Shown here piece by piece: positions 316-43,189 of a stretch of DNA of 64,000 nt. Numbering within the stretch: position 1 is the stretch's first letter; every line of letters starts with the position of its first letter. Position numbers and translations under genes: made by a program. Origin of the DNA: Candidatus Woesearchaeota archaeon (GTDB lineage Archaea > Nanobdellota > Nanobdellia > Woesearchaeales > 21-14-0-10-32-9); assembly GCA_021735165.1 (NCBI GenBank), contig JAIPHP010000002.1, positions 5,491 through 69,490 on the forward strand. Reading direction: 5' to 3'. The notes below the pieces were generated by a model. The model saw only the letters and a program-made list of their open reading frames with translations. It ran no database searches and was not told where the DNA came from.

Positions 316-1989
316 TCAATGAGTAAACCAAAAACTAAAATTTTCTTTATTATCCAAACGACAAAACCCAAACCTCTCAAACTGAACAACATCCCCAACA
401 GAAACATTTCTAACTAAAGGCTCCGCAAAACCTTTTTTAACAGACTTATCAGGCATCAAAACACTAACACTAACAAGATCCATATCCTTAGGCAAATAAT
501 GAAGCATACCAACACCACTTCGCCTATAAGTATCAATATCCTCATCAACAAACTCCAAAACAGAACCCGCCAAATACCTTACATTAAAACACTCCATAAA
601 CCTATACAAAGAACCTTCCTCTAACTCATTAAAATCATTTTTGGAAATAAAGAAAAAATCATTACTAACAAACTTTCGCTCACCACCCTTAATAGAAGGA
701 TTCAAATTCAAACTAAACTCCTTATGAGGAGCACCACTAACACGAACATCAACAGGAGAATCCACAAAAAAATACCTATTAGCACTCGCATCAAGCAAAC
801 GCTTATTATGTAAAATCAAATCATCCCACGTAAGCACAGGCTCATTCTTAGTAATCCCTGTACTAATAACAAAATTCTTGATTGCCTCAGCCAAAAAACC
901 CCTTCTTCTAAGAGCTCTTAGCGTAGTCAAAGAAGGATCATCCCAACCAATAAGTTCTCCTAAATTAACTTTTTCCCTTATAATTCTTCCTGAAGCCTCA
1001 ACACCTTTAAGATTAAACCTTCCAAACTCAAAAATATTAGTCTCATTATAACCTAACAAATTCTGCAAATACCTCTGCAACTCATTCCTCATCTCAAACT
1101 CCTTACTCCTAATCCTATGAGTAACCTTCAAGAAACCATCCATTATAGAATTCTGAAAATCATAATTAGGCCAAACCCTATATTTTTTGCCTTGTCGAGC
1201 ATGCTCCTTATCAATAATCCTAAAAATAGTAGGATCTCTCATCGTAGAATTCTTATGCTTTAAATCAATCTTTAAACGAGCAATAAAAGAACCCTGAGCA
1301 GACAACATCATCTCCGCCCAACGCTTCAAATTATCTTCAACAGACAAACCCCTACAAGAACAAGACTCGCCAGTCTCCCTACCTTTCTTAATTTCCTCAG
1401 GAGAACAATCACAAACATAAACATCCCCTGACCTAATCAATTTTTCACAATGACCATAATACAAATCCATATAATCTGAAGCATAAACAAGATCATCCCA
1501 CTCAACACCCAACCACTTAAAATCCTCCTGCATAATATCATAAAACTCGCTCCTAACAAGATCCGGATTAGTATCCTCAAACCTCAAAATAAATTTACCA
1601 TTATACGATTTAGCCAACAAATAATTAACAAGACACGCCTTTGCATGACCAATATGAGGATATTTCTCAGGACCTGGAGGAAACGCAGTAATTATCTGTT
1701 CACCCTCTTTAATATTAAGAAAATCAAAAATACCCCTTTTCTCATTCTTGTTTTCAAGAGCATCAGGATCAATTTCAAGCAATTGCTTCTCCTGAGACTC
1801 AAAATCCAAAGAATTAATTTCAGCAACAAGTTCATTAATCTTAGGCATTACCTGCTTTATCTGAGACCTTAAATCAGGAAATGTACCAATAACGCCTCCA
1901 ACAATAGCACCAGGATTAGCCTTACCATTATGCTTGACCGCGTTTAATAACGCCAACTTTTTGATCAACAATAAGACTTCATCATCCAT
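316..1989 (-). CDS. gltX: Glutamyl-tRNA synthetase, archaeal/eukaryal type
   Basis: 557 aa with a class I HIGH motif (PHIGHAKA) and overall GluRS architecture. The coding strand is unusually G+T-rich. Confidence 0.9.
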   Translation of the reverse strand: MDDEVLLLIKKLALLNAVKHNGKANPGAIVGGVIGTFPDLRSQIKQVMPKINELVAEINSLDFESQEKQLLEIDPDALENKNEKRGIFDFLNIKEGEQIITAFPPGPEKYPHIGHAKACLVNYLLAKSYNGKFILRFEDTNPDLVRSEFYDIMQEDFKWLGVEWDDLVYASDYMDLYYGHCEKLIRSGDVYVCDCSPEEIKKGRETGESCSCRGLSVEDNLKRWAEMMLSAQGSFIARLKIDLKHKNSTMRDPTIFRIIDKEHARQGKKYRVWPNYDFQNSIMDGFLKVTHRIRSKEFEMRNELQRYLQNLLGYNETNIFEFGRFNLKGVEASGRIIREKVNLGELIGWDDPSLTTLRALRRRGFLAEAIKNFVISTGITKNEPVLTWDDLILHNKRLLDASANRYFFVDSPVDVRVSGAPHKEFSLNLNPSIKGGERKFVSNDFFFISKNDFNELEEGSLYRFMECFNVRYLAGSVLEFVDEDIDTYRRSGVGMLHYLPKDMDLVSVSVLMPDKSVKKGFAEPLVRNVSVGDVVQFERFGFCRLDNKENFSFWFTH

Positions 1990-2011
1990 GGGCTAAGATA
2001 ACAAGGCAAGA

Positions 2012-2020
2012 TTTATAAAA
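2012..2020 (-). promoter_or_regulatory. TATA-like box upstream of gltX
   Basis: tttataaaa lies about 24-31 nt upstream of the gltX ATG at 1989, the spacing expected for an archaeal TATA box on a leaderless or short-leader transcript. Confidence 0.35.
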
Positions 2021-2129
2021 ACTTTGATTGTAAACAAGGAAAAGAAAAAATTCGGGCTATAAGCTCCAGTGGTTTCGTCCATTGGTACCAAGGTGGGTTT
2101 CCCTTTGGTCAAGCCCACACATACATTTT

Positions 2130-2261
2130 GGGCTCTTAGCTCAGTTCGGTAGAGCGCTCGGTTGGCATACAACGGTAAGCTGTGTTCAGAAATCATGACG
2201 CGGCCAGAAAAATTGTTGTCCAAAGATCGGGAGGCCGCGGGTTCAAATCCCGCAGAGTCCA
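2130..2261 (+). tRNA. tRNA-Ala(GGC) with a ~58-nt intron at the canonical 37/38 position
   Basis: Acceptor GGGCTCT/AGAGTCC carrying the G3:U70 Ala identity pair; D-arm GCTC..GAGC; anticodon stem CTCGG with loop TTGGCA, then an intron (2168-2225), then A-TCGGG; T-arm GCGGG-TTCAAAT-CCCGC; discriminator A. The exact splice junctions are uncertain. Confidence 0.7.
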
Positions 2262-2264
2262 GTT

Positions 2265-2540
2265 TTAGAATTCAGCTTGTAAGTATCGGGCATACTTTTT
2301 TTGATGGGATTCGTGAAGAGGTAATTTTTTCATGTGTTCCTCATAATTTTGTTCAATCAAATTGTAGAGACCCTCTTTTGCTAACTGTTTCACTAGGGGA
2401 GGCGTTCCATCAGGAATTATGCTACTGTATGAATTTGCTTTATCAATTGCTTCCTTAATGTTATCTTCCCACTCACCCATAATGCCTGCTTCTAAAAAAT
2501 CCATTCCATTTCCAGGAAAACTTAATCTGTTTTCCTTCAA
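2265..2540 (-). CDS. Hypothetical protein; possibly the frameshifted 3' continuation of the 2473-3102 ORF
   Basis: 91-aa ORF overlapping the upstream ORF by 68 nt in the +1 frame. A T6 run (ggattttttaga) sits at the junction. Confidence 0.3.
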   Translation of the reverse strand: MKENRLSFPGNGMDFLEAGIMGEWEDNIKEAIDKANSYSSIIPDGTPPLVKQLAKEGLYNLIEQNYEEHMKKLPLHESHQKKYARYLQAEF

Positions 2541-3102
2541 ATTTCTTAGGGTGGTAGAAAAAGTTGTCTATTTCAAATGTGTTTCCATTTATAAGAATCT
2601 CGTTCAAAAGATATTTTATTAGTTCTTTTTTCAAAGTTGGATATTTATAATCTTGTGCGTAATGAATATCATTATCATAAATATCTTCTTTACTTTCAAG
2701 CGTTTTATTTAATCCTTCCATTGATAGGACAGGAAAAATTATTTCATGATTAAGAAAAACAAATTCGTTCTTATGGTATAATGCGTTCACAAAGTCGTCC
2801 AGCATCATGCCAAATTCAATGTTAGCAGTCGATTCTCTTTTAATGCTCTCAATGTTCCACTCATGCTGTTCTTTTACACGTGTAGTTCCTTCTTTGAAAT
2901 CGGAAAGTTCATCTAATACTGATGCTAGAATTGGCGAAATGTGGATAGCTTCTTTTACACCTGGATTTGGTCTCCATGCAAGCAATCCTAAGTAGTTCTC
3001 AGGATATTTAAAATGATATTCATGTGCAAGAATAATCGCTTTCTCAACGTGTATATCTGCTTCACAATTATCCTTCTTAGATAAATAGATTTTGTCCCCC
3101 AT
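2473..3102 (-). CDS. Hypothetical protein
   Basis: 209-aa ORF with no recognisable motif. Confidence 0.45.
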   Translation of the reverse strand: MGDKIYLSKKDNCEADIHVEKAIILAHEYHFKYPENYLGLLAWRPNPGVKEAIHISPILASVLDELSDFKEGTTRVKEQHEWNIESIKRESTANIEFGMMLDDFVNALYHKNEFVFLNHEIIFPVLSMEGLNKTLESKEDIYDNDIHYAQDYKYPTLKKELIKYLLNEILINGNTFEIDNFFYHPKKFEGKQIKFSWKWNGFFRSRHYG

Positions 3103-3183
3103 GTATTAGCTAATCCCAAAACATATTTAAAATTATCTAATTTAAGCACTCTTAAGTGAGAAATGAACAGAAAAACTGGTTAC

Positions 3184-38203: not shown

Positions 38204-38324
38204 TGCGGGGGAAGGGATTCGAACCCTCGAACACACTAAGTGACAGGATGTCTCATACACGTATGAGTGTCATTTTTGGTGAAGCTTAAGTCCTGCGCAT
38301 TTGACCAGGCTTTGCTACCCCCGC
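38204..38324 (-). tRNA. tRNA-Leu(UAA) with a ~35-nt intron
   Basis: The reverse complement gives GCGGGGG-TA-GCAAAGCCTGGTCAAATGC-G-CAGGA-CTTAAG-[intron]-A-TCCTG, then a long variable arm, then GAGGG-TTCGAAT-CCCTT-CCCCCGC-A. Confidence 0.75.
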
Positions 38325-42054: not shown

Positions 42055-42163
42055 AGCCTCCGGCGAGAATTGAACTCGCGACCTCTACCTTTTTGCTAGC
42101 TGCGTTCAGATATCCTGGCCGCTGCCGTACCAAGGTAGCGCTCTACCGCTGAGCTACGGAGGC
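42055..42163 (-). tRNA. tRNA-Thr(GGU) with a ~37-nt intron
   Basis: The reverse complement gives GCCTCCG-TA-GCTC-AGCGGTA-GAGC-G-CTACC-TTGGTA-[intron]-A-GGTAG-AGGTC-GCGAG-TTCAATT-CTCGC-CGGAGGC-T. Confidence 0.7.
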
Positions 42164-42409
42164 ACAAATCGTGAGACTTTTATCGTATATATAAAATTTA
42201 CTCATTGAACGCATCGTTCTAAACATTTTGTTCATACATCAATTATGATTCAAGTCTTTAATTTCGCTTCGTTAAGTAGACTAAAATATTCTAATTTATT
42301 AATTTAAAGTCTTCTTTTCCTTTGTAAATACAATCTAATAATGAATTCAAGTATTCTCCTAAAAAAAATTCTCTTCCAGACGCTTACTTTAAGACATTTG
42401 TTGATTTTA

Positions 42410-42565
42410 GGGTGTGTCTCAAGTCTTTCTTTTTCGTATTGCGAAATATTGTTAGCTGTTTTGCAGTCTAAGTTTTTTACCGAAGAAACACATATCTTTA
42501 ACGTGTTCCACGTTGTGTTTCTCTCAATTGAGCTCTAGGGCAATACAGATATTTGGGACACACCC
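42410..42565. mobile_element. MITE-like element with terminal inverted repeats, copy 1
   Basis: Terminal inverted repeats GGGTGTGTC...GACACACCC. The 9-bp direct repeat TTGATTTTA lies at 42401-42409 and again at 42566-42574, as expected for a target-site duplication. The element is ~93% identical to 59811-59963. Confidence 0.55.
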
Positions 42566-42610
42566 TTGATTTTAAAAAAATTTTTAAATATAGGTTGCGG
42601 GGGTCTTCAC

Positions 42611-42958
42611 ATGTTAGAGTTTTGGAGAGAAATTCTTGGAATTGCAAATGTTTTCATAGGTTTGTTTGTTTTGGCGTTTGCTATTCTTTTTTTAAAAAAA
42701 ACAGCTCCTATGAACGATAGAAAGCCCTGGGTGATTTTATTTATAGCAGTGATTGTGTTTTTCTTTTTTCAGCTTTGTAAAATGATTGGCGTTTTTTCTT
42801 TTGGCATTTGGCCTGAATTGAGTGATTTTCTCCAAACATTGTTTATTGGATTAGTGTTATATGTGTTCATTTTCCAGTTCCATTTAATGCATAAGCAAGG
42901 ACGCATCATTGTAAAATCTAAAAATTATGGCAAAAAATTAATGAGAAAGAAGGTTTAA
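42611..42958 (+). CDS. Small polytopic membrane protein, hypothetical
   Basis: Three predicted transmembrane helices. A TATA-like tttttaaatata lies about 25 nt upstream of the ATG at 42611. The ORF track extends the frame to a TTG at 42566 inside the element's target-site duplication. Confidence 0.45.
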   Translation: MLEFWREILGIANVFIGLFVLAFAILFLKKTAPMNDRKPWVILFIAVIVFFFFQLCKMIGVFSFGIWPELSDFLQTLFIGLVLYVFIFQFHLMHKQGRIIVKSKNYGKKLMRKKV

Positions 42959-43083: not shown

Positions 43084-43189
43084 GGGCCCGTAGCTTAGCC
43101 TGGTTGGAGCGCTGGTCTTATATGACTACGTTTCACGCGAATAGCTCGAAGAGAGCCAGTGGTCGGGAGTTCAAATCTCCCCGGGCCCA
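43084..43189 (+). tRNA. tRNA-Ile(UAU) (probable) with a ~31-nt intron
   Basis: GGGCCCG acceptor; D-arm GCTT/GAGC; anticodon stem CTGGT with loop CTTATA, then an intron (43123-43153), then A-GCCAG; T-arm GGGAG-TTCAAAT-CTCCC. Anticodon TAT sits at 43119-43121, assuming the canonical intron position. Confidence 0.55.

Follow-up and report, generated by a model that had tools for sequence, protein, structure and literature searches.

A repeated element beside two woesearchaeal genes

The DNA analyzed here (the window; 64,000 nt of contig JAIPHP010000002.1 from a Candidatus Woesearchaeota archaeon, GenBank assembly GCA_021735165.1) contains two copies of a ~155-bp repeat that resembles a miniature inverted-repeat transposable element (MITE). 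Each copy lies ~45–57 nt upstream of a start codon, that of a small membrane-protein gene for copy 1 and that of a pilin-like gene for copy 2. Both were verified at the positions claimed in an initial annotation of the window, with the right bound of copy 2 moved to 59964: copy 1 occupies 42410–42565 (156 bp, + strand, GGGTGTGTCTCAA...TTGGGACACACCC) and copy 2 occupies 59811–59964 (154 bp, + strand, GGTGTGTCCCAA...TCGGGACACACCT). They are 94.2% identical over 154 nt, with eight substitutions, compared with the ~93% first estimated. The GC content of copy 1 is 39%, versus 31% for the window.

An inverted repeat of 12–13 nt, GG(G)TGTGTC(C/T)CAA, is present at both ends of both copies. In copy 1, the left terminal repeat (42410–42422, + strand, GGGTGTGTCTCAA) is complementary at 12 of 13 positions to the right repeat (42553–42565), which reads GGGTGTGTCCCAA on the minus strand. 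Beyond the 12–13 nt over which the repeat is perfect, complementarity continues imperfectly to ~20 nt and is followed by a subterminal GTATTGC/GCAATAC pair. Within the window, the terminal decamers GGTGTGTC(C/T)C and GGGACACACC are found four times, always at element ends, and we found no third copy or degenerate remnant of the element there. Copy 1 begins with G and ends with C, while the outermost bases of copy 2 have decayed, with no G on the left and a T in place of the C on the right. The open frames within the element are spurious, and its translation had no match in a set of 5.8 billion proteins. Likewise, an exact 20-mer of the conserved internal hairpin was without a match in 185,579 species genomes or in JGI metagenomes. 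Since neither the 20-mer scans nor the translated search found anything, this interior is rare.

Copy 1 is abutted on both sides by the same 9-mer, TTGATTTTA (42401–42409 and 42566–42574; 9/9 matches, offset 0). Its original description as a target-site duplication holds, as a 9/9 match arises at 0.1% of random window positions when ±2 nt of slop is allowed. Copy 2 had been thought to lack a clean duplication. However, setting the right boundary one base past CACACC, the only placement at which it shows, reveals TATTGTTAA (59802–59810) and TACTGTTAA (59965–59973), which match at 8 of 9 positions; matches of at least 8/9 occur at 1.4% of random positions (p ~0.014). Together, the two duplications are far beyond chance. 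Because the copies have diverged by 6% and both the end bases and the duplication of copy 2 have decayed, the insertions look old, and the family may by now be inactive in this genome.

To describe the surroundings, we counted positions outward from each junction, beginning with +1 at the first base beyond the element. At the right junction of copy 1, the 9-bp duplication and eight more bases are followed by the predicted host TATA box of the small membrane gene (TTTAAATA, 42583–42590, + strand), which thus starts at +18. This box begins 28 nt before the ATG, a spacing consistent with a leaderless mRNA, and the gene itself (42611–42958, + strand, 115 aa) faces the right end of the element. Copy 1 had ~280 nt of intergenic space to choose from, yet it lies 17 nt from the TATA box. 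At copy 2, the predicted TATA box of the pilin-like gene (TTTAAATA, 59788–59795, − strand) starts at +16 from the left junction. The location upstream of membrane and pilin genes that was originally proposed stands for both copies, with the correction that the pilin-like gene (59109–59753/6) is on the minus strand and is transcribed away from the left end of copy 2. The two copies therefore present opposite ends to the neighboring genes, copy 1 its right end and copy 2 its left. At both sites, the TATA-like boxes are outside the element and outside its duplications.

Relatives of the host lack the element at both sites. For copy 1, the order RecJ, tRNA (minus strand) and small membrane gene is kept in two related loci (L142 and L143), where the RecJ-like protein is 77% identical to that of the window. 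The membrane protein orthologue in L142 is 48% identical (E 6e-37), and in its 88-nt tRNA-to-ATG spacer AAAAGC-TTTTTATA precedes the ATG by 23 nt and the element is absent; neither locus contains a terminus-like sequence. For copy 2, the order Kae1, small minus-strand gene, Nre and TFE is kept in L150, from a sister genome, and in L152, with Nre identities to the window of 61% and 53%, respectively. The relatives at the two sites are distant (48–61% protein identity), and the copy 2 site alone can be aligned at the nucleotide level. Once insertions are removed, the window, L150 and L152 align there on ATATTTAAAA-TT-CTATT, in which the TATA core ATATTTAAAA is conserved in both relatives. The homologous site is unoccupied in L152. 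In L150, a different MITE occupies it as a tandem pair, at a distance of 15 nt from the same TATA box. The inverted repeats of these L150 MITEs, GGCTCTAGCCGGAATAAC (GGCTCTAGCCGGAATAACAC), are 37 nt long, and the 8-bp repeat TATTTGTA is present three times. The pair, 123 and 164 bp in length, occupies L150:4646–4956 (GCA_021735585.1, JAIPGR010000016.1). As one position has been used independently by two MITE families, it is better regarded as a preferred target than as the outcome of chance or mere tolerance.

The initial annotation had also proposed that the element is a non-autonomous MITE mobilized in trans. The duplications at both copies, the same termini elsewhere (described below) and the empty orthologous sites support this proposal, as does the window itself, where profile and sequence searches of all open reading frames (ORFs) detected no related transposase.

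Elements with the same termini and their spacing from promoters

Scanning 185,579 genomes for the paired terminal decamers at matching spacing yielded 95 loci, and a stricter pattern applied to metagenomes yielded 12. Since we estimate that chance could produce 35–50 matches in 596 Gb, only hits with an additional hallmark were used. Among 115 unique hits, 36 are flanked by a direct repeat of 8–9 bp, versus ~0.45% of random positions in the same loci. These duplication-bearing hits share the layout of copy 1, in which the order is duplication, G, GGTGTGTCCC...GGGACACACC, C and duplication. Their hosts include Desulfobacterales, a Chloroflexia metagenome-assembled genome (MAG), other bacteria, Woesearchaeota, Nanoarchaeota and a MAG assigned to Methanosarcinales. 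The element of the window thus joins a widespread set in Bacteria and Archaea that have GGGTGTGTCCC termini and 8–9 bp duplications. The interiors of the duplication-bearing elements fall into at least seven unrelated lineages, and the window element resembles the other archaeal copies over ~17 terminal nt only, a pattern that fits several independent MITE lineages served by related transposases. An apparent link between the window copies and a Desulfobacterales family, at 62% interior identity, was rejected as noise (shuffled maximum 0.67). In viral contigs, there were 27 chance matches to the 15-mer terminus, none with partner ends, and no paired termini. A literature search with the terminal 10-mer returned only PCR primers.

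Two groups of hits differ from the rest. In Labedaea rhizosphaerae (L024, L029, L037, L041, L043 and L073) and in Planctomycetaceae MAGs (L063 and L085), the decamer GGTGTGTCCC recurs in arrays; the 22-bp spacing of the Labedaea arrays produces overlapping pattern hits without target duplications. These arrays look like tandem or interspersed short repeats rather than MITEs. Nine loci from Actinomycetota and Vicinamibacterales MAGs (L006, L007, L010, L019, L032, L061, L067, L071 and L089) contain elements of 154–158 bp with the same core decamers, in which the repeat is extended outward to ACTAGTGGTGTGTCCC...GGGACACACCACTAG. The outward extension points to a CTAG (or TA) target and to a transposase of another family.

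A few Mutator-like elements of bacteria, namely TnGBS, ISLre2 and part of the ISKra4 group, are known to integrate in a promoter-directed manner, on the upstream side of sigma-A promoters and at a distance of 15–17 (13–17) bp (Guerillot et al., 2014; PMC3942029). Among ten archaeal-type sites with duplications, including both window copies, a predicted TATA box starts between +13 and +19 from a junction in nine. Besides the window copies, the starts are at +14 (L008), +15 (L133), +16 (L039, L135 and L141) and +18 (L012); in L033, the box is at +18 on one side and +16 on the other. The exception is L081, with a start at +23. In the same loci, a TATA start falls within this interval for 5% of all positions and 9.8% of non-coding positions (binomial p ~1e-8), and six neighboring 7-nt windows on the same flanks contain a TATA start in 0–2 of the 10 sites. 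Several of these sites have a purine-rich AAAAGC directly before the TATA box, resembling a B recognition element (BRE), and most have a start codon at +45 to +56. The L033 copy (L033:2851–3016, Woesearchaeota RIFCSPHIGHO2_02_FULL_36_9) lies between divergent genes with a TATA box on both sides, indicating that the site before insertion was a compact bidirectional promoter region. Three of the ten sites come from one MAG and three from AT-rich metagenome contigs of unassigned taxonomy; the interiors of two of these three resemble the copies in DPANN archaea, and the third differs.

The bacterial copies with duplications show a comparable arrangement. Counting as strict a sigma-70 promoter with at least 10 of 12 matches, a −35 box is found at +16/+17 in 5 of 25 copies, versus 0.16% at random, and in two further sites a sigma-70 promoter at that spacing is evident by eye. 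Judged from these sequences, elements with these ends appear to behave in bacteria like the published promoter-targeting clade and to have an analogous TATA spacing in archaea. The regular spacing of 14–18 nt across independent insertions argues for promoter-directed insertion rather than for promoter donation. In the literature searched, which was incomplete, we found no report of MITEs placed relative to archaeal TATA boxes and none of ISKra4-type elements in archaea.

Possible transposase families and alternative explanations

Which transposase could move such an element? The prokaryotic Mutator-like families comprise IS256, ISH6, ISLre2/TnGBS, ISKra4/ISMich2/ISAzba1 and Mycoplasma integrative and conjugative elements, and their members have 5′-G...C-3′ ends, in which the terminal C of the inverted repeats is conserved, and duplicate 8 or 9 bp of the target (Guerillot et al., 2014; PMC3942029). 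For comparison, we measured the ends of ISKra4-type insertion sequences (ISs), one from a Chloroflexia genome and the others from plasmids and one viral contig, identifying the transposase by NCBIfam NF033572 or by record annotation. Duplications of 9 bp flank the ISs from the Chloroflexia locus L065 (ends GGGTGCGCGCC), L153 (GGGTGTGGATC) and Acaryochloris (GGGCGTAAGC), as well as ISCasp2 (GGGTGCGACTC) and ISSri1 (GGGTGTGGATCC). The Pseudanabaena IS (GGGTGCGACC) has an 8-bp duplication and the Tolypothrix IS (GGGTGAACG) has none; in total, 6 of 7 have duplications of 8 or 9 bp. All seven start with GGG, six with GGGTG and two with GGGTGTGG, and the start of the window element, GGGTGTGTC, together with its 9-bp duplication, fits this series. 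The initial annotation had called for an IS with the same termini and a 9-bp duplication. None with identical ends was found in the window, the fetched loci or viral contigs; the seven ISs measured are similar over the first 5–8 nt.

One of the seven, the L065 element of Chloroflexia MAG KM4338-10, comes from the fetched loci, where a generic IS finder detected it. It is a 1,416-bp ISKra4-family IS (L065:1154–2569) with a frameshifted ORF that matches NF033572 (ISKra4 transposase; E 9e-11 and 1e-35), and the promoter next to it, TGGACA-18-TAAAAT, is at +17. Its transposase is encoded in two overlapping frames, resembling the programmed −1 frameshift described for the ISMich2 group. The same genome has approximately nine GGGTGTGTCCCAAGTTTGTC MITEs, from which the ends of the IS itself differ (GGGTGCGCGCC).

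Several known systems share features with the window element. The ISKra4 group (p-MULT 4) has GGGTG(Y)G ends, duplications of 9 bp (8 in some) and insertion 13–17 bp upstream of promoters. In contrast, the window element has no transposase gene, is ~10 times shorter and loses end identity after 7–8 nt, and its host is a DPANN archaeon with a TATA box, whereas the family has been described only in bacteria, at the −35 box. TnGBS and ISLre2 (p-MULT 3), compared here by duplication length, insertion spacing and orientation, use a Mutator-like DDE transposase, make 8–9 bp duplications and insert 15–17 bp upstream of the sigma-A −35 box, a spacing like that seen here. However, they are large, autonomous Firmicutes elements with an orientation bias, whereas the window copies face promoters with opposite ends. 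Eukaryotic non-autonomous Mutator-like elements (MULEs) and Pack-MULEs also belong to the Mutator superfamily, make 9-bp duplications and prefer gene 5′ ends (PMC3942029), but they are far longer, have long terminal repeats and frequently include fragments of genes.

Archaeal MITEs of other descent provide a further comparison. The SM1–SM4 MITEs of Sulfolobus are small and non-coding, with terminal inverted repeats, a target-site duplication, a strong predicted fold and a transposase supplied in trans. The window element shares these classical features, although the Sulfolobus MITEs derive from other IS families and have other duplication lengths. To our knowledge, no fixed TATA spacing has been reported for classical prokaryotic MITEs.

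Taken together, these observations mark the element as a MITE with the hallmarks of Mutator-like, ISKra4-type transposition, and make it likely that it is moved in trans and inserted in a promoter-directed manner. The transposase acting in trans would be a DDE enzyme of the prokaryotic Mutator-like superfamily, most likely of the ISKra4 type, which would bind the termini and integrate the element via 9-bp staggered cuts. Integration would be directed ~13–17 bp upstream of the core promoter, the TATA box (with BRE) in archaea and the −35 box in bacteria, which would explain why both copies lie 45–57 nt upstream of start codons. The host promoter would be left intact, with little effect on the neighboring genes.

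Several points weigh against this explanation. No autonomous element with identical GGGTGTGTCCC / GGGACACACCC ends was found in the window, the 150 fetched loci or viral contigs, and searches of all ORFs with ISKra4 transposases (phmmer and hmmsearch) detected no Mutator-like transposase in the window or in any fetched archaeal locus. Where termini are paired at IS-like distances in these loci, they enclose ordinary genes and no transposases. Because no cognate gene was found, the family assignment is based on the ends, duplication length and behavior. The terminal similarity to ISKra4 ISs covers the first 5–8 nt only, in a comparison whose measured ends were those of ISKra4-type ISs. The inverted repeat, perfect over 12–13 nt, is shorter than the 18–39 bp quoted for the superfamily, and the ISKra4 group was reported in 2014 from bacterial phyla only (PMC3942029). 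Chance may account for a sizeable share of the 115 paired-termini hits, and the promoter statistic comes from 10 archaeal-type sites, at which the TATA boxes and promoters are predicted from sequence. Survivorship could also contribute, if insertions were tolerated only just upstream of promoters.

The alternative that takes up several of these points is that the element is a MITE of another IS family that makes 8–9 bp duplications (ISH6, IS256, IS1, ISM1-type or ISLre2), and that its proximity to promoters reflects the survival of harmless insertions in a compact genome. IS1, ISM1, ISMae2, IS903 and IS4-type elements also make duplications of this length. That no cognate transposase was found in the window or the fetched loci leaves room for such a family, as does the restriction of the measured ends to the ISKra4 type. 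ISH6 (p-MULT 2) would fit by host range, being the Mutator-like family known in archaea and Desulfobacterium, with many of our hits in Desulfobacterales and archaea, and it shares 5′-G...C-3′ ends and AT-rich intergenic or promoter targets (PMC3942029). However, ISH6 duplicates 8 bp at AANATNTT (PMC3942029), whereas the window and DPANN copies have 9-bp duplications (TTGATTTTA and TATTGTTAA/TACTGTTAA in the window) without that motif. IS256 insertion has been reported to be random, and two IS256 ends given in the supplement to the same study begin GAGGGTGTCGG and GGACCTGTCAG (PMC3942029). Survival of harmless insertions would not readily account for the position of copy 1, 17 nt from a TATA box despite the ~280 nt available, for the enrichment of +13 to +19 over adjacent windows on the same flanks or for the presence of two MITE families at the same position in two genomes. 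We therefore consider this alternative unlikely, although it is the one to which we give the most weight.

It is also conceivable that the element now serves the membrane and pilin-like genes as a co-opted regulatory module, supplying or modifying their promoters, as the placement of both copies 45–57 nt upstream of a start codon might suggest; the 165-bp displacement of upstream DNA could in addition remove or add regulator sites. Against this, no outward TATA-like box is evident in the last 30 nt of either element end, the copies present opposite ends to the genes and the TATA boxes are host sequence beyond the duplications. In the relatives L142 and L152, the orthologues, with no element beside them, have an equivalent BRE/TATA equally far from the ATG. 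The suggestion in the initial annotation that the element donates promoters thus finds no support, and the gene adjacency probably means that the element targets promoters rather than donating them; we regard a regulatory role as improbable. Still harder to sustain is the reading, in line with a possibility left open in the initial annotation, that the repeat encodes a ~155-nt structured RNA with a long closing helix, or serves as a cis-acting segment of one, in two paralogous copies. The + strands do fold better than shuffled sequences (z −6.0 and −5.6 for the two copies), and in the RNAalifold + strand consensus no variable column breaks a pair and two double changes occur. However, the z scores of the minus strand (−5.4 and −6.4) are nearly the same, which is what a palindromic DNA element should give, and there is no Rfam match at the gathering score or at E ≤ 10. 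When the structure of one copy is fixed, the other breaks 0, 2, 3 or 0 pairs depending on the strand and reference (probabilities against randomly placed substitutions 0.023, 0.39, 0.65 and 0.019, with two sequences only), such that the covariance proposed as a check depends on the fold chosen. An RNA gene would also leave the flanking 9-bp duplications unexplained, and neither the absence of the element from syntenic sites in relatives nor the unrelated interiors of other elements with the same ends is in its favor. We consider an RNA gene highly improbable.

A broader possibility, which we advance tentatively and hold with less than even confidence, is that archaea (DPANN lineages and a Methanosarcinales-assigned MAG) host ISKra4/ISLre2-type transposition 13–17 bp upstream of TATA boxes, as bacterial relatives with the same GGGTGTGTCCC termini do upstream of the sigma-70 −35 box. 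Promoter targeting in bacteria has been explained by contact with the sigma-A initiation complex. Should the archaeal case hold, targeting might rely on a feature common to both domains, such as bending or unwinding of the DNA upstream of the core promoter; alternatively, it might have been re-tuned from a sigma factor to TBP/TFB. In that case, these MITEs would also naturally mark active archaeal promoters in lineages that have not been cultivated. The same ends at the same spacing from predicted archaeal TATA boxes make the targeting mechanism directly testable across two transcription machineries, and they extend the family into DPANN archaea, where mobile elements are barely described. The interest of the element lies mainly in this promoter spacing, since a MITE alone is ordinary.

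Other features of the window

The public Logan contig of the same organism stops at 42523, within a 36-nt block that is identical in both copies of the element, and this is a typical repeat-induced assembly break. MITEs of this kind interrupt short-read assemblies and, in uncultivated archaea, show where leaderless genes are likely to have their promoters.

Proteins of the window carry NCBI locus tags such as K9L97_00870 and K9L97_00990. The small membrane protein has no Pfam match, nor does the pilin-like protein, whose label comes from an N-terminal motif alone. The latter has a class III signal-peptide-like N terminus (KKRGQAAIEFLTTYGW) and a Cys-rich C-terminal third; its counterparts in L150 and L152 are called as much shorter proteins of 128 and 136 aa. 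To the right of copy 2 lies an Nre-family gene (60093–61334, + strand; Pfam Nre_N and Nre_C). Its ATG is ~129 nt from the element, and its own TATA-like box is ~30 nt before the ATG and ~100 nt from copy 2.

The generic IS finder also delineated a 2.8-kb segment at 405–3165, with an 8-bp direct repeat, AACAGAAA, inverted ends matching at 13 of 16 positions and a tRNA gene inside, which we judged to be probably a chance match rather than an IS. Four of the seven tRNA genes in the window appear to have introns. Four tRNA genes of 106–132 nt (2130–2261, 38204–38324, 42055–42163 and 43084–43189) are found by the Rfam tRNA model and missed by ARAGORN, presumably because of their introns, consistent with an archaeal host.

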